A stretch of 21,728 nucleotides of DNA from positions 1 through 21,728 of IMG/VR virus record IMGVR_UViG_2529292909_000013. One strand, given 5' to 3'. This DNA comes from a virus. Lineage: Duplodnaviria > Heunggongvirae > Uroviricota > Caudoviricetes. This document shows positions 3,618 through 21,728 of this stretch, piece by piece (position 1 is the first letter of the stretch; every line of letters begins with the position of its first letter). Below the pieces are notes generated by a model, which saw only the letters and a list, made by a program, of their open reading frames with translations, was not told where the DNA came from and did no database searches. The position numbers and the translations under genes were made by a program.

Positions 3618-4040
3618 ATGGCAAAAGCATTTACACAAGAAGAGCGGGAAAAAATTAAAGGGCAGGTTGTTGAACTCGTACGCCAGAGTGGGCGCGAGAC
3701 GTTACGACAACTGGAAACTAAAACTGGGGCAACAAGATATCTGATGAGCGTTCTGGCCAGAGAGCTGGTTGCCAGTGGCGATGTATACAACTCTGGTTAC
3801 GGGTTATTCCCGTCTGAACAGGCGCGTAAGGACTGGCAAAATGCCCGTAAAAAGCTCTCAAGGGCAAAGCCGAAGAAACCATCTGCGGTTGATCCGGACC
3901 TTATCTGGTCGTTACCAGACGGCGAAATACGCCGCTACGACAGGCGTCAAAACATAATCTGTCGCGAGTGCTGGAAGAGTGAAGCTATGCAGCGTGTACT
4001 GGCTTTCTATCAGGGGAATTTTCAGAAGGTGCTGTTGTGA
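3618..4040 (+). CDS. Hypothetical protein
   Basis: ATG at 3618 preceded by GGAGG; 140 aa; basic central region; no recognisable family. Confidence 0.45.
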   Translation: MAKAFTQEEREKIKGQVVELVRQSGRETLRQLETKTGATRYLMSVLARELVASGDVYNSGYGLFPSEQARKDWQNARKKLSRAKPKKPSAVDPDLIWSLPDGEIRRYDRRQNIICRECWKSEAMQRVLAFYQGNFQKVLL

Positions 4041-4151
4041 GCCAAATTAACAATCGGAACTTCGTGAAGAGAAAGAGAAAGCATAATCCAAATCTGAATA
4101 ATTAAGTTCAGCACTGTAAATAAAATTTAATCCTTAACTGGAGGTATATCT

Positions 4152-4364
4152 ATGTCAAATACACAGAAAATTATTAACACTGAAAAATATAACGAGTGGG
4201 TGAAAAAATTCTCTGAACAGATTTTTAAAATTACTGGCGACGAGAATGTGGCAAAAAATGAATTAGAACCGTGGACACCTGAAGGAAACGCACCAAATTA
4301 TTGCTGGTGGGAGGTTGATCCGGTTGATGCTGCAAATGAAGCCATGAGTTACCACAACGATTAA
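4152..4364 (+). CDS. Hypothetical small acidic protein (A+T-rich island)
   Basis: 70-aa ORF with GGAGG RBS; A+T-rich compared with flanking DNA. Confidence 0.45.
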   Translation: MSNTQKIINTEKYNEWVKKFSEQIFKITGDENVAKNELEPWTPEGNAPNYCWWEVDPVDAANEAMSYHND

Positions 4365-4396
4365 TGTCGGGAGGCCGCCCGAAAGGGCGGTAAGAA

Positions 4397-4615
4397 ATGA
4401 CTACATTATTCAGAAAAGAATATCCGCAAAAAAGTAGAGCGACAGAATTTTTGTTTCTCATTCTGTTTATCGTATTGATGATACCGATATCCCCTCTAAT
4501 TGTTGTCTGGGCAATCGGGAAAATAATTGAGCCAGTTACTGAATTGTATACCGACGTTGTATGGGCGTCGTTCAACACACTGCACAATAAAATTAATCCG
4601 TATAAGGAAAACTGA
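4397..4615 (+). CDS. Hypothetical small membrane protein
   Basis: 72 aa with a long hydrophobic stretch (FLFLILFIVLMIPISPLIVVWAIG). Preceded by a GC stem with GAAA tetraloop (ggccgcccGAAAgggcgg, about 4371..4389) that has no T-tract. Confidence 0.4.
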   Translation: MTTLFRKEYPQKSRATEFLFLILFIVLMIPISPLIVVWAIGKIIEPVTELYTDVVWASFNTLHNKINPYKEN

Positions 4616-4616
4616 T

Positions 4617-4880
4617 ATGGCAACTTTGACAAAAAAAGAACGGGCATGGTTGAACGAATTACAGGAAGTTCTTGATCGCTGTCCATCACCGAAAAAAATT
4701 GGCTTTTACACCATTGGCGATAAAAGCATTTACCTGTATGACCTACGCCGCATGGATGAAATCATGGAGGCTCTTGATAATCGTTCGTCGATGGATTGGT
4801 GTGTTGCTGTTCATGATATGAATGCAGGGTTTGATGAAAAGATTTTGTTCCCCTCATCAGTTGAAAGCACTGCGGGTTAA
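4617..4880 (+). CDS. Hypothetical protein
   Basis: ATG 4617 two nt after the stop of the preceding ORF; 87 aa. Confidence 0.45.
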   Translation: MATLTKKERAWLNELQEVLDRCPSPKKIGFYTIGDKSIYLYDLRRMDEIMEALDNRSSMDWCVAVHDMNAGFDEKILFPSSVESTAG

Positions 4881-4890
4881 GGAGTAACAC

Positions 4891-5058
4891 ATGACCACTA
4901 TTACCAAAGAACGTATTGAATTGTTCATTAAAAACCCGCTTGAAAACGGGCTTACCCGTGGTGAACAAATGGAACTGGCACGGATTGCGCTGGCATCGCT
5001 GGAAGCAGAGCCGGTTGTGTTCTGGTTTGAAAAATATCAAGAAGGGGCTACGGCATGA
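4891..5058 (+). CDS. Hypothetical small protein (55 aa)
   Basis: AAGGAG RBS before ATG 4891; stop overlaps the next start (ATGA at 5055..5058); shares the motif IAL-SL-AEP with the next ORF. Below the 60-aa cutoff of the supplied track. Confidence 0.35.
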
Positions 5059-5399
5059 CGACTTTTACCAGAGAGCAGTTAATAGCTCACGCAGAGGAGA
5101 CTATTGAAGCACAGAGACTGTGCATACCGGGCACAATCGACCATGACATCATCCGCACATATAAGATGGATATTGCTGTTCTGGAAATCGCACTGGTATC
5201 GCTGGCAGCAGAGCCAGCCGGTAAATTGCATGAATACAAACCAGTGGGATATCAGCGTCTGGTCGATGAGTTAACCATGCTGGTAAAGCAGTTAACCTGG
5301 CAACTGAGGAAAGCGAAGCCAGACTGCAAATTACCGGATAAGGCGATGAGTTATCTGGAGCGGAACGGACTGATAAGCGTGGAGGATATTTTACGATGA
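5055..5399 (+). CDS. Hypothetical protein
   Basis: 114 aa; translationally coupled on both sides (ATGA overlaps at 5055 and 5396). Confidence 0.45.
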
Positions 5400-5479
5400 C
5401 TTGGCCTGAAGCATTAACAACGGTAGGAATTGCGATGGCGGTGGCGCTGGTGGTGTATTCGATTTGCCGCTGGGGATAA
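5396..5479 (+). CDS. Possible 27-aa hydrophobic peptide
   Basis: ATG 5396 overlaps the stop of the upstream ORF; GGAGG at 5381..5385; product [27 protein letters not shown] is a single predicted transmembrane helix. Confidence 0.25.
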
Positions 5480-5690
5480 AAACGGTTTGCGGGAAAAGGA
5501 GAGTTAAGTAGAATTGCAGCGGGTGCTTGAGGCTATCTGTCTCAGGCATGAACACCAAAAGGCAGATAGAGAAAAGCCCCAGTTAACATTACGCGTCCGG
5601 CAAGACGCTTAACATTAATCTGAGGCCATATCTATGCTCTACACACGTAGGTTAGCCTCTTACGTGCCGAAAGGCAAGGAGAAGCAGGCT

Positions 5691-5846
5691 ATGAAGCAGC
5701 AAAAGGCGATGCTAATCGCCCTGATCGTCATCTGTTTAACCGTCATAGTGACGGCACTGGTAACGAGGAAAGACCTCTGCGAGGTACGAATCCGAACCGG
5801 CCAGACGGAGGTCGCTGTCTTCACAGCTTACGAACCTGAGGAGTAA
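5691..5846 (+). CDS. hokD: Hok/Gef-family type I toxin (HokD/RelF-like)
   Basis: 51-aa product MKQQKAMLIALIVICLTVIVTALVTRKDLCEVRIRTGQTEVAVFTAYEPEE matches Hok-family membrane toxins as I recall them; AAGGAG RBS at 5676..5681; in-frame upstream ATG at 5634 could be the mok-like start. Confidence 0.85.
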   Translation: MKQQKAMLIALIVICLTVIVTALVTRKDLCEVRIRTGQTEVAVFTAYEPEE

Positions 5847-5914
5847 GAGACCGGGCGGGGGAGAAATCCCTCGCCACCTCTGATGTGTCAGGCATCCTCA
5901 ACGCACCCGCACTT

Positions 5915-5945
5915 AACCCGCTTCGGCGGGTTTTTGTTTTTATTT
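5915..5945 (+). terminator. Intrinsic terminator after hok
   Basis: Hairpin aacccgc-ttcg-gcgggtt followed by TTTTGTTTTT. Confidence 0.6.
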
Positions 5946-6065
5946 TCAACGCGTTTGAAGTTTTAGATGGTGCCGGAATAGAATCAAAAATACTTAAGTA
6001 GCGCGCAGGGAGAAGAGGGATGGACCCCGAAGGGGAAGAGCTATTTATCTGGAAGGATTCTGAAG

Positions 6066-6239
6066 ATGAAAATCGAAGAATTACGTGAAATTTTTAGTGA
6101 AGATGGCCTCTATGCTGTGCGCGTTGAGAATGGGGGTATTACCTACACAGCGTTAATTCCTGATGATCATGTAGTGTTATCTGTTGAGGCATTCATTGAA
6201 TACTTGGAAAGACTCGGTTTCAAGGTAGTTCGGGAATAA
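6066..6239 (+). CDS. Hypothetical small protein (57 aa)
   Basis: ATG 6066 with GGAAGG RBS; MKIEELREIFSEDGLYAVRVENGGITYTALIPDDHVVLSVEAFIEYLERLGFKVVRE; below the ORF-track size cutoff. Confidence 0.4.
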   Translation: MKIEELREIFSEDGLYAVRVENGGITYTALIPDDHVVLSVEAFIEYLERLGFKVVRE

Positions 6240-6292
6240 GTTATAATACGTGAGCCAGCCTGAACAACTGGCAACCTGCAGCGCCATTGGAG

Positions 6293-6571
6293 ATGACAAT
6301 GGCGCATAATTTCAAATTTCGCAATTCTGATTCTGCCTTTGCCAGCAGGCACGGGTGGCGTTCTCACGCATTCAAATATGACTGGTATCAGCACGATCCC
6401 TGTACTGAAGAACAGGCCGAATGGCTGATTCATAACTACCGCAGACGCGGATACGAGATTAAGAAAGCCCTCACCCTCGATTATCGTCACTGGATAATCT
6501 ACGTCAGACTCCCTTATTCCGAACGCCCACCGCGTCCGTCCCGCACATTCCAGCAACGCATCTGGAGGTAA
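6293..6571 (+). CDS. Hypothetical protein
   Basis: Open frame 6287..6571; ATG at 6293 or 6299 preceded by GGAG; ends 1 nt before the next gene. Confidence 0.45.
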   Translation: MTMAHNFKFRNSDSAFASRHGWRSHAFKYDWYQHDPCTEEQAEWLIHNYRRRGYEIKKALTLDYRHWIIYVRLPYSERPPRPSRTFQQRIWR

Positions 6572-6572
6572 C

Positions 6573-7628
6573 GTGCGGGTATTACTTCGACCTGTTCTGG
6601 TACCGGAACTCGGGCTGGTGATCGTTAAGCCGGGCCGTGAATCCATGCCGGTATTCCACAATACCCGGGTACTGGTGGAGCCGGAACCGAAAAGCATGCG
6701 TAATCTGCCGTCCGGGGTTGTTCCTGCCGTTCGCCAGCCGCTGGTGGAAGACAAAACATTGCTGCCGTTTTTCAGTAACGCACGGGTGATTCGTGCTGCT
6801 GGTGGTGCTGGCGCATTGTCTGACTGGTTACTGCGCCATGTTAAATCCTGCCAGTGGCCACACGGCGATTATCACCACAGTGAAACCGTCATTCACCGTT
6901 ATGGTACCGGCGCAATGGTGTTGTGCTGGCACTGCGACAACCAGCTGCGCGACCAGACCTCCGAATCACTCGGGCAACTTGCTCACCAAAACCTGTCTGC
7001 ATGGATGATTGACGTCATACGCCATGCAATGAATGGCTCGCAGGAACGGGAATTATCGCTGGCTGAATTATCCTGGTGGGCGGTCCGCAATCAGGTGGCG
7101 GACGTGCTACCGGAAGCGGTATTACGTCGTTCGCTGGGGTTGCGTGCGGAAAAAATCCGCTCAATGTACCGTGAAAGCGACATCGTACCGGGAGAGCAGA
7201 CCGCCACCAGCATACTGAAGCAGCGCACAAAAAATCTTGCGCCGCTGCCTCACGCCCACCAGCAAAACCCGCCACAGGAAAAGACGGTGGTCAGCATTGC
7301 CGTTGATCCGGAGTCACCGGCTCAGTATCTCCAGCGCCAGAAATCACAACGGGAAGAGATGCCTGTATACACGCGTTGGGTAAAAACGCAGAAATGCATG
7401 ACGTGTGGCAATCAGGCAGATGATCCGCATCACATCATTGGTCATGGACTGGGAGGGATGGGAACAAAGGCTGATGATTTGTTTGTTATTCCGCTGTGCC
7501 GTAAATGCCATAGCGAACTACACGCCGGGGTAAAAGATTTTGAAGAAAAACACGGCAGCCAGCTGTTGTTGCTGATTCGTTTTTTAATGCACGCGAGAAA
7601 TTCGGGTGTTCTGAAGTGGAAAGCATAA
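6573..7628 (+). CDS. DUF968-family prophage protein with C-terminal HNH-like zinc-binding motif (YdfU-like)
   Basis: GTG start with GGAGG RBS; 351 aa; C-terminus carries CMTCG...DPHHIIGHGLGGMGTKADD...IPLCRKCHSELH (Cys/His HNH-like pattern). Sits immediately upstream of rusA, as in Qin/DLP12-type prophages. Confidence 0.65.
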   Translation: MRVLLRPVLVPELGLVIVKPGRESMPVFHNTRVLVEPEPKSMRNLPSGVVPAVRQPLVEDKTLLPFFSNARVIRAAGGAGALSDWLLRHVKSCQWPHGDYHHSETVIHRYGTGAMVLCWHCDNQLRDQTSESLGQLAHQNLSAWMIDVIRHAMNGSQERELSLAELSWWAVRNQVADVLPEAVLRRSLGLRAEKIRSMYRESDIVPGEQTATSILKQRTKNLAPLPHAHQQNPPQEKTVVSIAVDPESPAQYLQRQKSQREEMPVYTRWVKTQKCMTCGNQADDPHHIIGHGLGGMGTKADDLFVIPLCRKCHSELHAGVKDFEEKHGSQLLLLIRFLMHARNSGVLKWKA

Positions 7629-8680: not shown

Positions 8681-8952
8681 ATCGCGTACATTTCGTGTAA
8701 ATCTGATATTTTGCTGATTTTGTACACGATGGCAAACTAAACAAAGCCTGCTGCTGAGCGGGCTATCTTTTGTCGTAAGTTGAGCGAAAGACCATCGATT
8801 TTACCTTGCTAAAACTATTCTGCTATTGCCGAGTTACCCTTTAGGTAATACACTCATCTTATAAAAGAAAGTGGTTGTTAGCCACATAGGTTAGGATGTG
8901 CGCATACTTTGTTTGTGTGCTTTTTGTGTTTTATCTGTTAACGGAGGGGAGC

Positions 8953-9180
8953 ATGCCGAAATATCTAACACTTGCCGCTCGCGCGATCCTCTCACCTGAG
9001 AAGATCATCAAAAAAATTGCAGATATAGCTTCCATGTGTGATGGAAAAGAAGCTAAGCATGAAAGTGACAAGTTTTTCATTGATAGTAATGGTTCGATGG
9101 TTTTGAATCGCAACAACGCTGATGTGCAAAAGGCTTTCGCAGCCAATATTAAGGGATTGAGTACTAAGAAGAAGGGTTAG
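8953..9180 (+). CDS. Small lysine-rich soluble protein, first gene of an A+T-rich two-gene cassette (unknown family)
   Basis: ATG 8953 with strong GGAGGGG RBS; 75 aa; no hydrophobic segment; region is A+T-rich by eye compared with flanking phage genes. Confidence 0.5.
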   Translation: MPKYLTLAARAILSPEKIIKKIADIASMCDGKEAKHESDKFFIDSNGSMVLNRNNADVQKAFAANIKGLSTKKKG

Positions 9181-9186
9181 TCTTCT

Positions 9187-9984
9187 ATGTGGGCTGCGCT
9201 GATTGTTATTGTTTTAGTTTGTGGTTATCACTATACCAACTGCCATTTGCCGTCACGATACCGTCAAAGCAAAGCGATCGGTTGGAATGCATACTTTGAT
9301 GTTGCACTGAAAGGTGGTGAGTTTCTCATAAGTGGTATTCTTATCGCTGCCTTATTGGTTGTTGTTCTGTACGCTGGAATGTCACTTTGGAACATTCCAG
9401 CGTACTTGTTTGGTTGGTACGCTCCCTTTACTTTCGCCCATGACTTTCTCAAAATGCGAGTGTTTGGGTTGAGCATGTTCCCTGCTATGTCGATAGCTTT
9501 CACTATTATTGTAAGTATCGGGAAGGCATCAGAGGCAACCAAAAACCATAAAGACCCACAAAAGCGCAAGGCTATTTTTGAAGAAATTGCGGCTCATAGT
9601 GCCGTGGAAAATATCCTTCTTGAATCAGTTGAGCGTGGATTGTTATTGTTGGTTACACTGAAGTCTCGCAAGGTCTATGTGGGGATGATTGATGAGGCAC
9701 GTTTCAATCAGTTAGATACTAACACATTGGTGCTAATCCCTTTTATGTCCGGGTACAGAGATAAAGATACTCTGACTTTTTGTGTTGAGCATAATTATGT
9801 GGACTACTACCTTAGTCAGGGTATCACATTAACTTCTGAGCCATTGTCAGTTTATCAGTTTAGGCATGTGTTGCCCTTCGATCAGATCGAATCTTTTTCG
9901 CTGTTTAATGTTGAAACATTCGAGACTTTCAAGGCAGGTATTGAAGGGAAGAAGGCCACTGAAGTACAGAATCAAACAAGTTAA
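9187..9984 (+). CDS. Multi-pass membrane protein with about 150-aa C-terminal soluble domain (unknown family)
   Basis: Starts 6 nt after the upstream stop; 265 aa; hydrophobic segments at roughly residues 2-14, 45-75 and 92-112, then a charged soluble domain; followed by an intrinsic terminator. Confidence 0.55.
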   Translation: MWAALIVIVLVCGYHYTNCHLPSRYRQSKAIGWNAYFDVALKGGEFLISGILIAALLVVVLYAGMSLWNIPAYLFGWYAPFTFAHDFLKMRVFGLSMFPAMSIAFTIIVSIGKASEATKNHKDPQKRKAIFEEIAAHSAVENILLESVERGLLLLVTLKSRKVYVGMIDEARFNQLDTNTLVLIPFMSGYRDKDTLTFCVEHNYVDYYLSQGITLTSEPLSVYQFRHVLPFDQIESFSLFNVETFETFKAGIEGKKATEVQNQTS

Positions 9985-11593: not shown

Positions 11594-11669
11594 GGCCCTT
11601 TAGCTCAGTGGTGAGAGCGAGCGACTCATAATCGCCAGGTCGCTGGTTCAAATCCAGCAAGGGCCACCA
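11594..11669 (+). tRNA. ileZ: tRNA with CAT anticodon (Ile2/Met type)
   Basis: Cloverleaf folded by hand: acceptor GGCCCTT/AAGGGCC, anticodon loop cTCATaa, T-loop TTCAAAT, 3' CCA encoded. Symbol follows Stx-phage naming. Confidence 0.75.
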
Positions 11670-11676
11670 TCACATA

Positions 11677-11753
11677 CCGCCATTAGCTCATCAGGAAAGA
11701 GCGCCAGCCTTCGAAGCTGGTTGCGCGGAGTTCGGGTCCCCGAAGGCGGTCCA
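11677..11753 (+). tRNA. argN: tRNA-Arg (TCG anticodon), slightly non-canonical
   Basis: Anticodon stem CCAGC/GCTGG with loop cTTCGaa; T-loop TTCGGGT; one mismatch each in acceptor and T stems; CCA encoded. Confidence 0.55.
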
Positions 11754-11766
11754 TTATCTGTATCCT

Positions 11767-11843
11767 GCGTTGTTAGCTCAGCCGGACAGAGCAATTGCCT
11801 TCTAAGCAATCGGTCACTGGTTCGAATCCAGTACAACGCGCCA
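11767..11843 (+). tRNA. argO: tRNA-Arg (TCT anticodon)
   Basis: Acceptor GCGTTGT/ACAACGC, anticodon loop cTTCTaa, T-loop TTCGAAT, CCA encoded. Confidence 0.8.
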
Positions 11844-12818: not shown

Positions 12819-14195
12819 ATGGCATTTAAACACTATGATGTTGTCAGGGCGGCGTCGCCGTCAGATCTTGCGGAAAAGCTGACACATAAACTGAAAGAGG
12901 GCTGGCAGCCGTTTGGTAGTCCGGTGGCCATAACCCCTTATACCCTGATGCAGGCGATTGCAGCAGAAGGTGATGTGGTCGTCAGTGGTGCAACTGAGCC
13001 GGAGTGGTACTACGTCATCGTACTGGCCGGGCAGTCCAATGCCATGGCTTACGGTGAAGGGCTTCCGCTTCCGGATTCATACGATGCGCCCCATCCGCGC
13101 ATTAAGCAACTGGCCCGTCGTAACACAGTGACTCCCGGTGGTGAAGTATGCGTATTTAACGACATCATTCCTGCTGACCATTGTCTGCATGATGTTCAGG
13201 ATATGAGTACGATTAACCATCCCCGGGCTGACCTGAGCAAAGGGCAGTACGGCTGTGTCGGACAGGGCTTACATATTGCCAAAAAACTGCTTCCGTATAT
13301 CCCTAATAATGCGGGGATCCTGCTGGTACCATGCTGTCGTGGTGGTTCGGCATTCACCCAGGGCGCGGAGGGGACATTCAGTGCGGACACGGGGGCCAGC
13401 CAGGATTCGGCACGCTGGGGTGTGGGTAAACCGTTATATCAGGATCTGCTTTTCCGCACGAAGGCAGCATTGCAGAAAAACCCGAAAAACGTTTTGCTGG
13501 CGATATGCTGGATGCAGGGGGAATTCGATATGACGAATGCCAGTTACGCCCAGCAGCCAGCAGCATTTCTTGCAATGGTACAGCAGTTCCGTGCTGACCT
13601 TGCCGGGCTGGCGGCGCAGTGCCATGGCGGCAGTGCTGCAGTTGTACCGTGGATTTGTGGCGACACGACGTATTACTGGAAAAACACATACGGCACACAG
13701 TATGACTCCGTCTACGGCGCGTACAAAAACAGGGAGAGCGACAACGTTTTCTTTGTGCCGTTCATGACCGACGGTAACGGCAACAACACGCCCACCAACT
13801 TACCGGCAGAAGACCCGGATATTGCTGATGCAGGTTATTACGGCGCGCAATCCCGTAGTAATGGTAATTGGGTATCGTCAAATCGTCCGACACATTTCAG
13901 TTCATGGGCGCGCAGGGGCATTATTTCGGATCGCCTGGCAACCGCTATTCTGAACGCAGTTGGTCGAACCAGCGCCTTCATCAGCGGTACCGCACCGGAG
14001 ATTAAACCCTCGCCCGGCGGCGACACGCCATCGGGGCCGTCTGATGGTGACACATCCGTTCGTACAGTCTCCCTGCTGCCGACAGCCGGAGAGGCTGCTG
14101 CGCAGGGCTGGACCATCACCGGCGGCAGTGTTGCGCTGGAAGATGGTGTGTTTAAGGTTACCGCGTTAACGGAGCGCGGCGTTGTCCCCTCATAG
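12819..14195 (+). CDS. Prophage NanS-p-like esterase (sialate O-acetylesterase family)
   Basis: 458-aa ORF with GGGAGG RBS; resembles the nanS-p/yjhS-like gene found downstream of the tRNA/stx region in Stx-type lambdoid phages; contains the VIVLAGQSNAMAYGE segment and a Gly/Ser/Asp-rich C-terminal tail. Confidence 0.6.
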   Translation: MAFKHYDVVRAASPSDLAEKLTHKLKEGWQPFGSPVAITPYTLMQAIAAEGDVVVSGATEPEWYYVIVLAGQSNAMAYGEGLPLPDSYDAPHPRIKQLARRNTVTPGGEVCVFNDIIPADHCLHDVQDMSTINHPRADLSKGQYGCVGQGLHIAKKLLPYIPNNAGILLVPCCRGGSAFTQGAEGTFSADTGASQDSARWGVGKPLYQDLLFRTKAALQKNPKNVLLAICWMQGEFDMTNASYAQQPAAFLAMVQQFRADLAGLAAQCHGGSAAVVPWICGDTTYYWKNTYGTQYDSVYGAYKNRESDNVFFVPFMTDGNGNNTPTNLPAEDPDIADAGYYGAQSRSNGNWVSSNRPTHFSSWARRGIISDRLATAILNAVGRTSAFISGTAPEIKPSPGGDTPSGPSDGDTSVRTVSLLPTAGEAAAQGWTITGGSVALEDGVFKVTALTERGVVPS

Positions 14196-14658
14196 TCGCC
14201 TGTCCGGTGCGATGGTGGAAGAAGCCGGATGTTTATCACTATTAATTGATGACACAGAAATGGATTCATTGAATTTCAGCACGTTTTTGTATTCGTGTTA
14301 TTGAACATCTGTTTATTTACTTTTAACATATTGATAATAAAAAGAGCTGTAAATCTTTAGATGAGTCGATTTTGTCCGGGGAAGTTCAAATGGATTTTAT
14401 GCTGACGGTTTCTGGTGTGGTTATCCTGTCCATTGCTTATACTGCAGATAAATATGGCTGCCATTTGTTATCACGTATTGGCGCTTATTGTTCGTTGATG
14501 CTGATTTTCTCGTCGCTTTTTTGAGTAAGTTATATTAATTATAACAAATAATTTTCTGTGTTATTTTCAGGCTATCCCGTCAGAGGGGAAGCCTGTACTG
14601 CCAGGGAGCGAATGGAAAACTGATGTGTCCGGTAACTGCGTGTTCTGTGAACACCATG

Positions 14659-14844
14659 TTACTTAATTATGTAATTCATACCCGAACTCTCTGTTGACAG
14701 CCTTCTTCTGCAGGCTTCAATAACCCACGCTGAAAAGTTTCCTGAACCTTTCAGATCAAGAGCGATGTTAATTTGTTCAATCATCTGGTTTGGAAATCGG
14801 ATGTTGCGGGTTGTTGTTCTGCGCGTTCTGTTCTTTGATGACAT
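14659..14844 (-). CDS. Small ribbon-helix-helix-like protein (DUF3950/YlcI-like)
   Basis: 61-aa minus-strand ORF; strand-helix-helix pattern RNIRFPNQMIEQINIALDL...FSAWVIEACRRRL typical of RHH DNA-binding proteins; sits just upstream of cos/Nu1. Confidence 0.45.
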   Translation of the reverse strand: MSSKNRTRRTTTRNIRFPNQMIEQINIALDLKGSGNFSAWVIEACRRRLSTESSGMNYIIK

Positions 14845-15019
14845 AATGTTTCCCCATATTCAGTGTTGCTGATTTGTATTATCAGAAGTTGCTTTTACGT
14901 TAATTTGACGCAGATCAATTAATACGATACCTGCGTCATAATTGATTATTTCTCGTGGTTTGATGGCGTACACACATGTTGTGATAAACCTTATATAGAT
15001 GATAATCATTATCATTTCG

Positions 15020-15230
15020 TGGGTCCTTTCCGGCGATCCGACCGGTTACGGGGCGGCGACCTCGCGGTTTTTCACTATTTATGAAAATTTTTCAGGGAAA
15101 ATCGTGTCGGTACTTCTCGAATATAACTTTTTGTTTTTTTTAATATTGCATCCGTAAAGGTCCGACATGAAAGTGTCCGAAAATGCCTTTTTCTGGCGTT
15201 TTCATGTCGGGCCTTGTATTTGATAATGGG
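15020..15230 (+). other. Lambda-like cos site (cosQ-cosN-cosB)
   Basis: GGGCGGCGACCTCGCGGTTTTTCACTATTTATGAAAATTTT at 15051.. is near-identical to the lambda left end (12-nt cohesive end GGGCGGCGACCT). The preceding GGGTCCTTTCCGGCGATCCGACCGGTTACG matches the lambda right end. Inverted repeats GTCCGACATGAAA / TTTCATGTCGGG (about 15165..15215) look like cosB R-sites. Confidence 0.75.
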
Positions 15231-15238
15231 TTGTTTTC

Positions 15239-15787
15239 ATGAAGGTTAATAAAAAGAGGCTTGCCGAAATTTTCAACGTGGACCCGCGGACGATTGAACG
15301 CTGGCAGTCTCAGGGACTCCCTTGCGCCTCCAAAGGTAGTAAGGGCATTGAATCTGTATTTGATACTGCCATGGTAATTCAGTGGTATGCGCAGAGGGAA
15401 ACTGATATCGAAAACGAAAAGCTCCGCAAAGAACTGGACGATTTGCGTGCGGCAGCGGAGTCAGATTTACAACCCGGCACCATTGACTATGAACGCTACC
15501 GGCTCACAAAAGCGCAGGCAGATGCGCAGGAACTGAAAAATGCCCGTGAAGACGGAGTAGTGCTGGAAACTGAACTGTTTACCTTCATTCTGCAACGTGT
15601 GGCACAGGAGATTTCGGGGATACTTGTGCGTGTGCCGTTGACATTACAGCGTAAATATCCGGACATTTCACCATCACACCTTGATGTGGTGAAAACTGAA
15701 ATCGCGAAAGCCTCCAATGTTTCAGCTAAGGCCGGTGAAAACGTGGGCGGGTGGATCGATGATTTCAGACGCGCAGAAGGCAGCTAA
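15239..15787 (+). CDS. Terminase small subunit Nu1
   Basis: 182-aa product closely similar to lambda Nu1 ([62 protein letters not shown]). Confidence 0.9.
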
Positions 15788-16967
15788 TGCAGCCGGTGCG
15801 ATAGCAACAGGGCTTTTATCTCTCATTATTCCTGTTCCACTGACGACAGTTCAGTGGGCCAATAAACATTATTACCTTCCTAAAGAGTCGTCTTATACCC
15901 CGGGGCGGTGGGAAACACTGCCGTTTCAGGTTGGCATCATGAACTGTATGGGCAACGATTTGATTCGCACTGTTAACCTGATTAAATCTGCCCGTGTTGG
16001 TTATACAAAGATGTTGCTGGGAGTGGAGGCTTATTTTATTGAGCATAAATCACGCAACAGCCTTCTTTTTCAGCCCACGGACTCAGCTGCTGAAGATTTT
16101 ATGAAATCTCATGTTGAGCCAACGATAAGGGAGGTTCCTGCGTTGCTGGAGCTGGCTCCATGGTTCGGAAGAAAACACCGCGATAATACGCTCACCCTGA
16201 AGCGTTTTTCCTCCGGTGTGGGTTTCTGGTGTCTGGGGGGAGCGGCAGCAAAAAACTACCGTGAAAAATCCGTGGATGTGGTCTGTTATGACGAGCTTTC
16301 CTCGTTCGAACCGGATGTTGAAAAAGAGGGTTCGCCAACCCTGCTGGGGGATAAACGTATTGAGGGCTCTGTATGGCCCAAATCCATTCGCGGCTCGACG
16401 CCTAAAATCAAAGGCTCCTGCCAGATCGAAAAAGCCGCTAACGAGTCGGCACACTTCATGCGTTTTTATGTGCCCTGTCCGCACTGTGGGGAGGAGCAGT
16501 ATCTGAAATTTGGCGATGAGTCCACGCCTTTTGGGCTTAAATGGGAGAAGGACAGCCCCGAAAGCGTTTTCTACCTCTGTGAGCATCATGGCTGCGTGAT
16601 CCATCAGTCTGAACTGGACCAGAGTAACGGGCGGTGGATCTGTGAAAACACGGGCATGTGGACCCGTGACGGTCTGACGTTTTTCAGCGCTGCGGGTAAT
16701 GAAATTCCGCCGCCGCGCTCCATCACTTTCCATATCTGGACGGCGTACAGTCCGTTCACCACCTGGGTACAGATTGTCTATGACTGGCTGGATGCACTGA
16801 AAGATCCCAACGGCCTGAAAACCTTTGTGAACACCACGCTGGGCGAGACCTGGGAAGAGGCTGTGGGCGAAAAACTCGATCACCAGGTACTGATGGATAA
16901 GGTTGTGCGTTACACGGCGGCGGTGCCTGCCCGGGTGCCCTCGTGGACTCGTCGCCTGACGCACTGA
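15759..16967 (+). pseudogene. Terminase large subunit (gpA) N-terminal fragment, truncated after about 400 codons
   Basis: From ATG 15759 the product tracks lambda gpA (ANKHYYLPKESSY..GRWETLPFQ, CPHCGEEQYLKFGD, TTLGETWEEAVGEK) up to about ...YTAAVPARV, then diverges and stops at 16967; lambda gpA is about 641 aa. Confidence 0.85.
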
Positions 16968-18235
16968 ATACGCTGAACGAGCTGGCTGCGGCGTTGGGCA
17001 ACGACCCGAATTTTGCGACCACCATGACTAACGCGCTTGCGGGTAAGCAACCGAAAGATGCCACCCTGACGGCGCTGGCCGGGCTTGCTACTGCGGCAGA
17101 CAAGTTTCCGTATTTTACGGGGAATGATGTTGCCAGTCTGGCAACCCTGACAAAAGTTGGGCGGGATATTCTTGCGAAATCGACCGTTGCCGCCGTTATC
17201 GAATACCTCGGTTTACAGGAAACGGTAAACAAGGCTGGTAACGCCGTTCAGCGTTCCGGCGATAAAATGACCGGAGAACTGAAAATTGGCACGGTGAATG
17301 CGCTGCGAATTTTCAATGATGCCTTCGGTCTTATTTTCCGTCGTTCAGAAGATTTTCTTCATTTCATTCCGACGGCTGAAGGACAAGGCGAAAACGGTGA
17401 TATCGGCCCATTAAGGCCATTCGCTATAAATCTGAGAACAGGTGCTATATCTGTCAGCCACGGGGCCAAAATTGATGGTGGGCTGGCGCTTGGTACAGAT
17501 AACGCACTGGGCGGTAATTCCATTACTCTCGGAGATAACGACACTGGTATTAAACAGGGCGGCGACGGTGTCCTTTTATTCTATTCAAATGGACAACTGG
17601 CATTTGGGCTTCAACCCGCATCTGCTGATTTTTATAAGCGGGTTGCATATATTCATCAGGGAATAATTCCTGATGGAAGTGGCGCATTTGCAGACCAGTT
17701 GAATAATGCCACCGCGCCTTTTGTTCAGACGCAGTTTGCCTGGAATCCCACTCCTGGTGGTCATTACGTGCCGATAGTTAAGGGCTTGTCCATTCGCAAT
17801 GGACAGGGCTATCCCGGCGCGGTCAGCTTTGGGTATTTACTGACAGAACAGTATGGATTTCCGGTTCCATGTATTCATATGCGTGGCGATGGCGGTAATG
17901 ATGCTTTATGGCAGTTTAACCCGAACCATAAATCCTTTATTTCACCGGGTGCTCTTATTGCGGGTGGCGTCCGTTATAACACCGATGGAAATATATTTGG
18001 TGGGTGCTGGGGGTCAAACTTAAATGATTACCTGAATAGTTCTTTTATCAGAAATGTGCGTCTGGGAGGCAGACGTTCTGACACATTATATCGCGGAGGA
18101 CTTTGCGAACCAGGTAATGGTCATGTGACAACAGGATTGCAAATTATTGGTGAGGTTGATGGAGATGACTGGATGGTGTCACGACCACTACAAAAATACA
18201 TTTCTGGTAACTGGTATAACGTTGAACAGGCATAG
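16943..18235 (+). CDS. stf: Side tail fibre protein, 3' portion (constant-region end plus variable segment Sv); 5' part missing
   Basis: Contains the conserved DALNTLNELAAALGNDPNFATTMTNALAGKQPKDATLTALAGL...AAVIEYLGL block of lambdoid Stf proteins and a C-terminal receptor-binding-like domain. No upstream shaft/N-terminal region; begins at the junction with truncated gpA. Confidence 0.75.
   Translation: MDSSPDALNTLNELAAALGNDPNFATTMTNALAGKQPKDATLTALAGLATAADKFPYFTGNDVASLATLTKVGRDILAKSTVAAVIEYLGLQETVNKAGNAVQRSGDKMTGELKIGTVNALRIFNDAFGLIFRRSEDFLHFIPTAEGQGENGDIGPLRPFAINLRTGAISVSHGAKIDGGLALGTDNALGGNSITLGDNDTGIKQGGDGVLLFYSNGQLAFGLQPASADFYKRVAYIHQGIIPDGSGAFADQLNNATAPFVQTQFAWNPTPGGHYVPIVKGLSIRNGQGYPGAVSFGYLLTEQYGFPVPCIHMRGDGGNDALWQFNPNHKSFISPGALIAGGVRYNTDGNIFGGCWGSNLNDYLNSSFIRNVRLGGRRSDTLYRGGLCEPGNGHVTTGLQIIGEVDGDDWMVSRPLQKYISGNWYNVEQA
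17196..17221 (+). other. Left crossover site (ix/gix-like) for Pin/Gin-family DNA invertase
   Basis: TTATCGAATACCTCGGTTTACAGGAA is 22/26 identical to the reverse complement of the site at 20275..20300 and resembles Mu gix. Lies in the EYLGL codons at the constant/variable junction of stf. Confidence 0.65.
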
Positions 18236-18250
18236 CCATCAGGAGAATAT

Positions 18251-18778
18251 ATGCAACATCTGAAAAATATTACCGCCGGAAACCCCAAAACCATTGAGCA
18301 GTATCAGCTTACGAAAAAAGCTGGCGTTATCTGGCTATATACAGAAGACGGTAAAAACTGGTATGACGAATTAAAAAACTTTCAGGATGATACTTTAAAA
18401 ATAGCTTATGACCAGAAGGGGATTATTCGTTGTATTGAGAAAGACGTATCAATGCTTAACCCTGACGGGTTAAGTGTTGTTGAGTTACCGAATATAACAG
18501 CCAACCGTCGCGCCGATATCTCGGGAAACTGGAAGTTTCTGGATGGTAAAGTAGTAAAGCGGGAATATACAAAACAGGAACTGCAACAGCAGGCAGAGTT
18601 ACAAAAAGCCGCTTTGCTTTCCGAAGCGGAGTCTGTGATTCAACCGCTGGAACGTGCTGTCAGACTGAATATGGCAACTGATGAGGAACGCACACGACTG
18701 GAATCATGGGAACGCTACAGCGTTATGGTCAGCCGTGTGGATACTGCAAAGCCTGAATGGCCACAGAAACCAGAATAA
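18251..18778 (+). CDS. tfa: Tail fibre assembly protein (Tfa)
   Basis: 175 aa; typical Tfa N-terminus ([28 protein letters not shown]) and C-terminus ([12 protein letters not shown]...RVDT...PEWP). Confidence 0.85.
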
Positions 18779-18787
18779 CAACAAATT

Positions 18788-18810
18788 AAGGCCCGTACGG
18801 GCCTTTTCTT
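18788..18810. terminator. Intrinsic terminator between the convergent tfa genes
   Basis: aggcccgtacgggcct hairpin followed by TTTTCTT; could serve both strands. Confidence 0.5.
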
Positions 18811-18911
18811 ATTCTGGTGGTTCCGGGAATGTTACAGGAAGAACCGAGGTATCAGTTGTCTCAACCTGTTGCACGTATCGCATCCAGTTCATCAGTTGCT
18901 GTCTGTCTGAA

Positions 18912-19340
18912 TCAGTGATAATCCCCAAAGTAAGCTGTGTTTGCCAGAACTGCGTTTTTCTCTGGCCTGCTGTAATAATATTTTTTCTGGTTTTCCGTCT
19001 GTAGGCGCAACTCTTCTTCGGTATATACACGTTTAATGACTGCGCCATCTTTAAACATCCATTTACCTGAGTCGTCAGCACGCCGGTTGGCGGTAATATC
19101 AGGAATCTCAACGACGCTATAACCTTCAGGGTTAAGTGTGGAGGCATCTTTGGTTATGGCAACAATAATATTATTTTCATCGTAAACAATCTTTATGGTG
19201 TCTGGCTGAAATTTTTTCACTTCCTCATACCAGTTTTTTCCGTCCTCAGAGTAAAGCCAGATAACTCCGTGTTTCTTTGTTAACTCATACTGTTCCAGTG
19301 TTTTAGCATTACCCGCTTTTATGTTCTTTAAGTGCATCAT
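18912..19340 (-). CDS. tfa: Alternative tail fibre assembly protein (Tfa') in inverted orientation
   Basis: 142 aa on the minus strand; N-terminus parallel to Tfa ([28 protein letters not shown]); start lies 2 nt downstream of the stf' stop on the minus strand. Confidence 0.8.
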
Positions 19341-19341
19341 A

Positions 19342-20292
19342 TTAAACGCTCGCTACATTATACCAGGTGCCATTTATATACTTTTGAACGGGTCTGTAAT
19401 AAACGCCCGCTATATTATCGGCAGAGTTAGACCCTGTATCCTGAACATTAATACCAGACAATACATGACCTGAAGGGCACTGGAAATTCCATGTTTGCCA
19501 GTTGTTCACTCCATAATATTGCTGTGAACCAAGTCGAACATCTTTCACATAACGGGAATCAAAGTTACCGTAATCCGAGGGGTTAACACGCCCTGTAATA
19601 TTTATGGTTTTATTACTTTGAATGCTTCCGGAGACAAAGCGCATAACATGGACGTTATTAGCATAAACATCCAGATTACCATCGCCATTTTGTTTAAAGC
19701 CCGTGTCATTATCACCCAATACAATCGAATTACCGCCAAGAGCACTGGATGTTCCGATACCCAGTGCACCATTCAGTTGACCACCAGATAACGGCAGTGC
19801 ACCAACATCTCCTGCTGAAGGTTTTCTGGTGGTGGTGTAAAATTCGGACCAGTCGGCTTCAAAACCATAACCATCACGGGCTGAACGATAAAAAATACCG
19901 CCATTTTTATAATTAATCCGAAACTGAACTGCAGGACAACTTCCTTCTCCCATATAAAAATGAATAATTAACGTTGATGCACCACTAATAGTTGCGTTAT
20001 AGGCTCCGCTACTCCAGTTCCATCCAACTGCTTTATCATTCGCAACGGTGCTTCCTGTTTTCCCTAAGGCAAACGCACCAACATGACTTGCTTTTAATGT
20101 GATATCGGAGGAACCATCAAAAGCCACATTGCTTATTTTCCTGGCAGTTTTTAATTTTGCAGCTGTAGAAGCATTGCCGGATAGTTCACCAGAAAGGCCA
20201 CCGCTGAATGTTTGTCGATTAGTCCAGGTATTCGCTGTACTGAGTAACGGTATTTTCTCCCCGCTTGTGCCGAGTTCTCGTAAACCGAGGTT
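19342..20292 (-). CDS. stf: Alternative tail fibre variable segment (Sv'), promoterless/startless, inside the invertible segment
   Basis: Minus-strand frame is open from 20292 (translated by hand: [32 protein letters not shown]...), beginning exactly in the LGL codons at the right crossover site; would be fused to the constant stf region after inversion. Confidence 0.7.
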
Positions 20293-20300
20293 TTAGATAA
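20275..20300 (+). other. Right crossover site (ix/gix-like)
   Basis: TTCTCGTAAACCGAGGTTTTAGATAA closely resembles the Mu gix site and lies just upstream of the pin reading frame. Confidence 0.65.
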
Positions 20301-20354
20301 TGGCGGTTTCTGGCCTGCATGGCATGATTTGTGCTTTTGGACGGGAGATTCAGC

Positions 20355-20537
20355 GTGCTGATTGGCTATGTAAGGGTATCAACAAATGACCAGAATACAG
20401 ATCTGCAACGAAACGCTCTTGTTTGTGCAGGATATGAACAAATATTTGAAGATAAATTAAGCGGAACAAGGACAGGCCGACCTGGATTAAAACGTGCTTT
20501 AAAGCGCCTTCAAAAAGGTGACGCACTGGTTGTCTGA
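20355..20537 (+). pseudogene. pin: Pin/Gin-family serine DNA invertase, N-terminal 60 codons followed by decayed frame
   Basis: GTG start; (M)LIGYVRVSTNDQNTDLQRNAL...LKRALKRLQKGD matches the Pin N-terminus including the catalytic-Ser region; stops at 20535..20537 where Pin has Trp. Downstream reading still resembles Pin (K-L-D...L...HL) but with further stops, then ends at a tfa fragment. Confidence 0.8.
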
Positions 20538-20600
20538 AAACTGGACTGACTGGTTCACTGTATGCGGCATCTTGTCGTGCTGGTGGTGGAAGCCTAGAAA

Positions 20601-20681
20601 AAGTATCGGGTGTTACTGAACCGTGTTGATACATCAACTGCACCTGATATTGAGTGGCCTACGAACCCTGTCAGGGAGTAA
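20601..20681 (+). pseudogene. Tail fibre assembly gene 3' fragment (duplicate of 21648..21728)
   Basis: Encodes ...[23 protein letters not shown]-stop, nearly identical at DNA level to the 3' end of the tfa fragment at the window end. Confidence 0.6.
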
Positions 20682-20707
20682 TCATTGGGATTATGCCGCA
20701 GCACGTC

Positions 20708-21319
20708 TTAAGCAAGAACGTGCTGCGGTTGGATGCTATTTTTCCCTGAAGCGGAAAACATTACTACAGTACCTTGAACCTTGGTTTTAACATTCTCGAA
20801 ATGCTCTGAGAGTATATGTGTTAAGCCTTCTTCGGAATCTTTTGTGTTTGAAAAGATGCCTTTCTGATTGTAAATGCGCATCAGTTTTTGACCGAAGCTA
20901 TTGTGCACAACTCCATCGCCAAGAATTGTGGCTCCGTATAGAGTTCCATCGTCAGTTAAGGCCTGCGCCGCATTGCGTATTACACAGCTTTTTGTAGATA
21001 TATTTCCAGGCAGGCAGTGAAGAAGGTAAAACATGGAAATGGAATCAAATTGACCATGTAACGCCGCGGGATAAGGTTCAAAAACATCATGGCTAATTTT
21101 ATGTTTAATTTTTGATTCCCCAGCCCTTGTAGATGCCGCGTTCAGGCTAGCTTCGTTCAAATCCATTAAAGATATCAGACTACTCTCAGGTACGTGAGTA
21201 AGGTAAAACCCAGTTCCAACACCAATATCCAGATGGTTGTTACCTACATGTTCCAGAAAGTGTGGAAGAAGGTGTTCCTTTGTAGGACATCCCCATGCAA
21301 GCCGATTTGATACTCCCAA
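20708..21319 (-). CDS. Class I SAM-dependent methyltransferase (YbcY-like), probably 5'-truncated
   Basis: 203 aa with the AdoMet-binding glycine motif LDIGVGTGFY; no ATG at the N-terminus (frame is open upstream to a stop at about 21362 with only TTG/CTT candidates), suggesting a remnant like ybcY of DLP12. Confidence 0.6.
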   Translation of the reverse strand: MGVSNRLAWGCPTKEHLLPHFLEHVGNNHLDIGVGTGFYLTHVPESSLISLMDLNEASLNAASTRAGESKIKHKISHDVFEPYPAALHGQFDSISMFYLLHCLPGNISTKSCVIRNAAQALTDDGTLYGATILGDGVVHNSFGQKLMRIYNQKGIFSNTKDSEEGLTHILSEHFENVKTKVQGTVVMFSASGKNSIQPQHVLA

Positions 21320-21458
21320 AACCCACCAGTCATAAAGCTTTAGGGTAAGTGGTGTGTAAATTTTAGCCCCATCATCTGTGTTTTTTTCATTGATTTCACC
21401 ATGTTATAGTTTTATTTGTGAATTAAATCAATTATGGCGATGAATTACAAGGGGTTAA

Positions 21459-21728
21459 ATGCTGCCGCAGCATAGCGATATTGAAATAGCCTGGTATGCT
21501 TCGATACAGCAAGAGCCGAATGGCTGGAAGACCGTCACCACACAGTTCTACATCCAGGAATTCAGTGAGTATATTGCGCCACTGCAGGATGCTGTAGATC
21601 TGGAAATCGCAACGGAGGAAGAAAGATCGTTGCTGGAGGCATGGAATAAATATCGGGTATTGTTGAATCGTGTTGATACATCAACTGTACCTGATATTGA
21701 GTGGCCTGCAAATCCTGTCAGGGAGTAA
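21459..21728 (+). CDS. Tail fibre assembly protein C-terminal fragment (TfaX-like)
   Basis: 89-aa ORF ending at the window edge; C-terminus [36 protein letters not shown] parallels the Tfa C-termini at 18251..18778 and the fragment at 20601..20681. Confidence 0.65.

Follow-up and report, generated by a model that had tools for sequence, protein, structure and literature searches.

The stretch of DNA analysed here (the window, 21,728 nt; IMG/VR record IMGVR_UViG_2529292909_000013, positions 1 to 21,728) carries a lambdoid prophage. Its gene content runs from a repressor through YdaS/T, replication genes of the DnaT-like and P kinds, RusA, Q, a DNA methylase, three tRNAs, a SASA esterase and cos to the terminase genes and a tail fibre. 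Pfam matches were obtained for the HTH repressor, YdaT, the DnaT-like protein, lambda P, RusA, the Q antiterminator, the methylase, Nu1, GpA and Caudo_TAP. PADLOC gave no match for the terminase fragment, the ybcY-like methyltransferase and two ORFs following Q, and NCBIfam gave none for these two post-Q ORFs. The genes around the deletion scar described below lie in lambdoid order, and the window is colinear with the prophage of Escherichia coli 042.

The window ends about 0.5 kb short of the ompW remnant that is seen in relatives with a 99.8% identical right flank. By these right flanks, the prophage probably resides at ompW, beside the trp operon; lambda-like prophages are known to attach at this locus (PMC8112680). 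Besides the deletion scar described below, the prophage has at least three defects. A deletion at about 14158-14162 removed about 3.2-3.6 kb, comprising the 3' end of the esterase gene and the genes for holin, YdfR, lysozyme and Rz; in the DnaT-like replication gene, one iteron-like unit of 10 bp is missing, which shifts the frame; and the DNA invertase gene is dead.

Terminase genes and cos site

The packaging region opens with an intact cos site of the phage 21 type at 15051-15216 (plus strand), of which 200 out of 200 nucleotides are identical to nt 1-200 of phage 21 (OL657228). It comprises the cohesive-end bases of cosN (15051-15062) and, in cosB, R3 (15100-15115), the IHF site I1 (15124-15136), R2 (15157-15172) and R1 (15200-15216); every annotated cos subsite of phage 21 is present in the window with 0 mismatches. 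Downstream lies the gene for the terminase small subunit (15239-15787, plus strand), the homologue of phage 21 gp1 and lambda Nu1, which is full length (182 aa) and covers profile positions 1-162 of 164 of Pfam Phage_Nu1 (E = 2.4e-81). The gene falls inside a 98.1% DNA match to phage 21.

The gene for the large subunit (gp2/gpA', 15759-16967, plus strand) is truncated. With the start at 15759, which is the annotated start in 042 and in phage 21, its product counts 402 aa, compared to 642 codons for the intact gene in phage 21 and 042 and 641 aa for lambda gpA. Codons 1-393 (15759-16937) are native and are followed by nine out-of-frame codons derived from side tail fibre (stf) DNA; the resulting residues, PSWTRRLTH, resemble nothing and are followed by the stop codon. 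Residues 1-393 are 97.7% identical to phage 21 gp2 and to the terminase of the 042 prophage, and residues 15-393 are 69% identical to lambda gpA at the protein level. The initial reading of this DNA, made from the sequence without database searches, had the product follow lambda gpA over roughly 400 residues before similarity abruptly ceased. The homology and the abrupt loss hold, the exact retained length is 393 residues, and the type is that of phage 21 rather than of lambda proper.

The ATPase domain (GpA_ATPase, PF05876) is complete in the remnant (profile positions 2-247 of 247, E = 2.4e-57), while the nuclease domain (GpA_nuclease, PF20454) is cut, with only profile positions 3-81 of 294 present. 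Judged by this domain content, the ORF is a gene fragment and would not be a functional member of the GpA type. The Pfam result and the domain organisation of gpA-family terminases imply that the remnant would be unable to cut cos or to dock on a portal. A naturally short gpA, named in the sequence-only reading as an observation that would speak against a deletion, is countered by the truncation of the nuclease domain and by approximately 1,960 complete-genome records that carry the gene part at a coverage of at least 80%; among the matches listed, these are annotated as full terminase genes.

Side tail fibre remnant and its chaperone gene

Directly after the terminase fragment lie the distal 432 codons (537-968 of 968) of a side tail fibre gene (16937-18235, plus strand), as determined by blastp and PHROGs. 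Read from 16937, this remnant is 99.1% identical to the corresponding part (residues 537-968) of the Stf protein of strain 4/1-1, which counts 968 aa, and it matches tail-fibre PHROGs with an E-value of 1.5e-128, which bears out the suggestion that the second ORF encodes the conserved distal part of a side tail fibre in a different frame. It is also 74% identical to residues 1-66 of lambda orf-314 over 66 residues. Codons 1-536, and with them the N-terminal tail-attachment domain ('prophage tail fiber N-terminal domain'), are deleted. Compared to a lambdoid Stf with its Tfa, the remnant thus retains the distal receptor-binding part and the following tfa gene, and is devoid of the N-terminal domain.

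The fibre remnant has no start codon of its own. The mechanically called ORF opens at a GTG at 16943 and encodes 430 aa, corresponding to RefSeq protein WP_000378474.1, which is annotated in E. coli. Both ORFs flanking the junction are as originally described, i.e. 15717 or 15759 to 16967 and 16943 to 18235, both on the plus strand. Five bases upstream of GTG 16943 lies a GGGTG motif that resembles a weak, putative ribosome-binding site. The fibre remnant is followed by an intact tfa gene (18251-18778, plus strand), encoding a 175-aa tail fibre assembly chaperone (Pfam Caudo_TAP, E = 7.8e-35; phrog_136, E = 5.8e-77).

Invertible segment and invertase remnant

The tip of the fibre gene lies in an invertible tail-fibre segment of the G/P/C type (17196-20300, assigned to no strand), whose ends are marked by crossover sites in inverted orientation (17196-17221 and 20275-20300). 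These gix/pix-like sites are part of a 32-nt inverted repeat (17190-17221 and 20275-20306) that is 84% complementary. Within the segment, the plus strand encodes the Sv-U set and the minus strand the U'-Sv' set, the latter being recognised from its ORFs and their families as an alternative tfa' (18809-19340, minus strand) and an alternative fibre tip (19344-20237, minus strand). Strain MLI114 carries the segment in the opposite orientation, and Mu-like Yersinia phages match the window at 97%, beginning at 17189.

Next to the segment lies the remnant of a DNA invertase gene (20355-20537, plus strand), in which 60 codons are followed by a stop (phrog_8275 and phrog_125, 'DNA invertase', E = 5.4e-33). 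The rest of the gene was lost at an older junction near 20584, where DLP12-like sequence resumes, and relatives annotate the same 180-nt fragment. Of the features of a Gin/Pin/Cin (Din) system, the bracketing sites are therefore present, and a functional adjacent invertase of about 185-190 aa is absent.

Position and anatomy of the deletion junction

Base-by-base alignment to both parental sequences (gpA of 042, stf of E100341 and AST205, and a single intact reference, L014, described below) places the breakpoint at 16936/16937, inside the interval 16930-16945 that had been predicted. The terminase parent is identical as far as ...CCCGGGTG, ending at 16937, and the fibre parent is identical onward from TGCCCTCGTGG..., beginning at 16936. 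Both parents thus overlap at the crossover in the dinucleotide TG only. This TG, at 16936-16937, is the sole sequence common to the parents at the junction (a feature without strand), and neither filler or inserted bases, nor an IS end, nor a repeat was found at the junction in the three-way alignments and in the alignment to L014. BLAST against 5,426 complete E. coli genomes gave the same picture, as matches of the left flank all stop at 16937 and matches of the right flank all begin at 16936.

The two reading frames differ across the junction (15759 for the terminase being 0 mod 3 and 16937 for the fibre 2 mod 3), hence no fusion protein results; as the right flank is in the other frame, the terminase frame reads nine foreign codons and then TGA at 16965-16967. 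The junction lies outside any homopolymer. The 2-bp TG overlap, the clean switch from one parent to the other and the absence of a match to a crossover site at the junction are those of an illegitimate (microhomology) deletion.

An intact relative and the size of the loss

The sequence-only reading had proposed to align the flanks to an intact related prophage, and doing so defined both the breakpoint and its 2-bp TG microhomology. The reference was found by cross-matching the hit lists of both flanks, which led to E. coli PRO_A-1374-6M-A_ESBL (NZ_CM136175.1; L014), whose prophage is flanked on one side by the ompW remnant/yciE/trpA and on the other by the remaining chromosome. Window positions 14158-16937 align to L014rc 3846-6630 at 99.64%, and positions 16936-21728 align to L014rc 26643-31439 at 99.83%. 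In L014 both flanks keep their strand and order and lie 20,014 bp apart, and within 200 nt on either side of the join the window differs from L014 by only two substitutions. Other candidates were discarded as intact reference: 042 has the right terminase and a different fibre, and MLI114, O121 201805972 and 4/1-1 have the right fibre and a head module of the HK97 type. The stf gene carries the label 'incomplete' from PGAP in PRO_A and E100341; translation gives an open frame of 968 codons in PRO_A, so that the label is an annotation quirk.

The interval of 20,014 bp holds 19 complete genes, preceded by the last 750 nt of the terminase gene and followed by the first 1,608 nt of stf. The complete genes are W, portal, S49 protease/scaffold, D, E, FI, FII, Z, U, V, G, T, the tape measure gene (H), M, L, K, I, J and lom; of the two genes hit in part, that of the terminase large subunit lost codons 394-642 and that of the side tail fibre codons 1-536. 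Compared to the colinear L014, the window is missing 19 whole and two half genes, a loss that takes in all virion genes, and the lysis cassette is absent as well. The original estimate, that about 15 kb or more had gone, including portal, capsid, tail and most of the tail fibre, is borne out and refined to 20,014 bp relative to L014.

Comparison with related prophages and phage 21

Over the shared flanks, the sister prophages at ompW in E100341 and AST205 and the intact PRO_A copy are 99.3-99.8% identical to the window. E100341, AST205, EC21Z-078 and PRO_A share the ompW/yciE/trp locus, the dead invertase and the right end with the lineage of the window. Unlike PRO_A, which retains the full 20 kb, the three other sisters are defective, each with a junction of its own: gpA nt 219 is joined to lom in E100341, the 3' end of Nu1 to the N-terminal part of stf in AST205, and Nu1 nt 270 to mid-J in EC21Z-078. 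Since no sister junction can be derived from another, the deletions are independent. All of them start in Nu1/A; an endpoint hot spot was dismissed as an explanation, because the relatives had been retrieved with queries requiring both flanks close together, which is an ascertainment bias.

Phage 21 (nt 1-1887 of OL657228) aligns to window positions 15051-16937 at 98.1%, a match that runs from cos through gene 1 to nt 1,179 of gene 2. Unlike the prophage in the window, phage 21 is a complete virus without an invertible segment, and blastp shows no relation between its 686-aa side tail fibre and the fibre fragment.

The likeness to DLP12 of E. coli K-12 that had been pointed out is apt. In DLP12, with the order nohD - aaaD' - tfaD - ybcY' - tfaX, an intact Nu1 homologue and a gpA fragment (aaaD') are joined straight to tail-fibre genes and the head and tail genes are gone, as in the window. 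Moreover, the right end of DLP12 (3' end of tfaD, ybcY, tfaX) is 96.9% identical to window positions 20584-21705. DLP12 differs in that 309 nt of gpA are kept and joined to tfa rather than to stf, in that its packaging genes are only about 68-71% identical to those of the window, in its different chromosomal site and in the retention of a lysis cassette (essD, rrrD, rzpD), whereas the window has lost its own. The Qin prophage of K-12 (nohA - stfQ - tfaQ - pinQ) likewise joins a Nu1 homologue to a distal fibre fragment (stfQ, 320 aa), with tfa and the gene of a Pin invertase downstream, an order that matches the gp1 - (gp2') - 'stf - tfa - ... - pin' of the window. Qin lacks a gpA fragment, has a full-length pinQ and occupies a different site (ydfJ), and no DNA similarity to the window was found for its stf part.

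How the scar arose

Together, these data very probably reflect an internal deletion in a cryptic lambdoid prophage, by which illegitimate recombination joined a truncated gpA to the middle of stf. The ancestor would have been a lambdoid prophage at ompW with a packaging and head-tail module of the phage 21 type and an invertible tail-fibre tip like that of Mu and P1. From the junction anatomy and its 2-bp microhomology, we infer that 20,014 bp were excised by break-and-join or by replication slippage across the TG. The outcome would be a cryptic prophage that can neither be induced nor package DNA. The junction itself has no function and is a scar. Support beyond the junction comes from decay elsewhere in the prophage (the lysis deletion, the 10-bp frameshift and the dead invertase) and from scars of the same kind, with other endpoints, in the three sister prophages and in DLP12 and Qin of K-12.

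A chimeric contig linking the terminase region to the tail-fibre region would produce the same picture, and two observations could be taken to point that way. The junction was seen in no other genome or metagenome searched, with 0 occurrences in the 5,426 complete E. coli genomes (BLAST) and 0 matches of the junction 40-mer in species-representative genomes and metagenome contigs, and the window shows many homopolymer shortfalls of 1-2 nt, which suggest an error-prone early platform. The junction is, however, not within a homopolymer, the parents share 2 bp only and so offer no repeat to mislead an assembler, and the 430-aa junction ORF exists in RefSeq (WP_000378474.1). Read support, the check initially suggested against misassembly, comes from the Logan contig SRR094136_296, which was assembled from raw reads and spans the junction with 100% identity over window positions 15038-17234 (2,197 bp), although SRR094136 may be the source data of the window itself and so provides an independent assembly rather than an independent sample or isolate. 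The exact 402-aa terminase product (start 15759) is encoded on this contig; an exact look-up of the 416-aa mechanical ORF gave no match. A k-mer graph would cross a join with a 2-bp overlap only if the reads do. Because a separate raw-read assembly spans the junction at 100%, misassembly is very unlikely. The junction is rare and lineage-specific. Many fusions of gpA to tail genes had also been suspected from a 90% protein cluster of the truncated terminase with 'tail fiber' and 'tape measure' members; tblastn ruled these out, the members being plain fibre or tape-measure fragments in a heterogeneous cluster.

Alternatively, the same scar could have been reached in several steps or by recombination between two different prophages of the genome, marking the end of a deletion or inversion that involved both. 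Similar terminase and stf genes occur in several prophages of an E. coli genome (with a median of two places per genome for each flank), and rearrangements between prophages at ompW and ydfJ have been reported (PMC8112680). Such an origin is improbable. A single intact prophage matches both flanks at 99.6-99.8% identity and has them at the same chromosomal locus with order and strand preserved, and a 2-bp junction is unlike the product of homologous exchange between prophages. Nested successive or earlier smaller deletions would leave the same scar and no trace of their own. The internal deletion that had been proposed is thus upheld by the colinearity with L014, while its being a single event is the most economical history and presumably the right one, a parsimonious reading that cannot be proven from the end state. 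Tail-fibre DNA invertases of the Pin/Gin type are able to make deletions between directly oriented sites, and gix/pix-like sites border the invertible segment just downstream of the junction. We considered a deletion by such an enzyme on a pseudo-site and rejected it, its probability being close to nil: the left crossover site is 259 nt downstream of the junction, no second match to the 26-bp site was found in the window at up to three mismatches, and by inspection the parental breakpoints are unlike the site, except for a GGTTTA hexamer on the gpA side. Moreover, the 60-codon stump is common to intact relatives, so that the loss of the invertase predates the deletion.

Implications

For annotation, the 402-aa 'terminase' and the 430-aa 'hypothetical protein' WP_000378474.1 are to be read as two halves of one deletion scar, which would also mark the prophage as non-inducible. 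The junction, which none of the 5,426 complete E. coli genomes contains, offers a clean marker of its lineage that could serve in strain typing.

There is a slim chance that the remnant is not inert and interferes with, or hitch-hikes on, helpers of the phage 21 type. It has retained a perfect phage 21 cos, an intact small subunit and a large-subunit fragment with the whole ATPase domain, devoid of a complete nuclease. If so, the fragment could act on a superinfecting phage of the phage 21 type by poisoning or titrating its terminase, which would constitute a packaging-interference defence, or alternatively a helper could package the element in trans via cos, like a cos-type satellite. The independent deletions that spare cos and gp1 in the sisters would then reflect selection and not chance. 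What speaks for this reading is the set of retained parts; the clustering of endpoints is explained by the way in which the relatives were retrieved.

The internal deletion described here is ordinary prophage decay, a fresh instance of a kind long known from E. coli K-12, and its importance beyond annotation is little. With three sister deletions and one intact copy at 99.6-99.8%, it forms a small and well-resolved example of prophage decay, which shows how quickly, and how many times over, the structural module is lost within one prophage lineage.

Deletions in the lysis and head-tail modules

A second deletion junction lies at 14156-14163, where similarity to the esterase stops and post-Rz sequence begins. 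In sequence comparison, the likeness of the SASA-type esterase gene (12819-14195) to full-length relatives ends at about 14116-14162, and from 14158 onward the window is a 99% match to what other prophages carry 3' of the Rz lysis gene. The window thus lacks approximately 3.2-3.6 kb with the genes for the holin, YdfR, lysozyme and Rz. As was the case for the main junction, between the truncated terminase large subunit and the side tail fibre, no complete E. coli genome spans the junction at 14156-14163.

The prophage copies at the ompW locus of E100341, AST205 and EC21Z-078 each carry a large and different deletion in the head-tail module, and the copy in PRO_A-1374-6M-A_ESBL is intact. Three other copies with different deletions alongside an intact one show that a single prophage lineage has decayed repeatedly and independently. 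The clustering of deletion endpoints in the terminase genes Nu1/A is probably due to ascertainment bias.

The indels that separate the window from PRO_A-1374-6M-A_ESBL (99.6-99.8% identical) are all T homopolymers that are 1-2 nt shorter in the window, located at 14316, 14517, 14564, 18955, 18981, 20739 and 21381. The stretch 16936-21728 counts 4,793 nt in the window versus 4,797 in PRO_A-1374-6M-A_ESBL, E100341, AST205 and 4/1-1, a strain with an intact side tail fibre gene. These shortfalls, which look like homopolymer under-calling in the assembly of the window, make two genes seem frameshifted: the inverted tfa' (18809-19340) and, close to its 3' end, the ybcY-like methyltransferase gene (20708-21319). 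The main junction is unaffected by them.

Invertible tail-fibre segment and accessory genes

Positions 17196-20300 hold the fossil of an invertible tail-fibre segment, whose crossover sites are gix/pix-like; a remnant of its cognate invertase follows (20355-20537; 60 codons and a stop). What is left of the invertase gene breaks off at about 20584, at an older junction common to all relatives. Among strains the segment is found both ways round, as in MLI114 versus the window, and from exactly 17189 on it is 97% identical to the Mu-like Yersinia phages vB_YpM_3 and vB_YpM_23.

At about 1751, a tandem ATGTCACGAC iteron-like repeat is one unit (10 bp) shorter than in the prophage of E. coli 042, a loss that splits the DnaT-like replication gene at the lambda O position into ORFs 1318-1797 and 1731-2354. 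The 042 prophage also lacks a two-gene insert 3' of the Q antiterminator (8896-9984), possibly a moron, that encodes 94 aa (8896-9180) and 265 aa (9187-9984; phrog_3630). Neither ORF has a match in NCBIfam or PADLOC, and the Pfam scan, which covered the 265-aa ORF, gave no match. The genes for the DNA methylase and the esterase are separated by three tRNA genes carried by the prophage (11594-11843; Met/Ile2-type CAT, Arg-TCG and Arg-TCT), in the arrangement also present in the 042 prophage.

Logan contig and cos region

Logan contig SRR094136_296, assembled from raw reads, corresponds to window positions 15038-17234, its left end lying 13 nt 5' of cosN and its right end 13 nt beyond the left inversion crossover site. 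Assembly-graph branching at repeats common to other prophages could account for these ends, as could a culture containing both orientations of the invertible segment.

The cos region (15051-15250; cosN and cosB R3, I1, R2 and R1) is identical to that of phage 21 at 200/200 positions, and the small terminase gene is intact in a prophage that we infer to be unable to make particles. In principle, a phage of 21 specificity could cut or package this prophage in trans.
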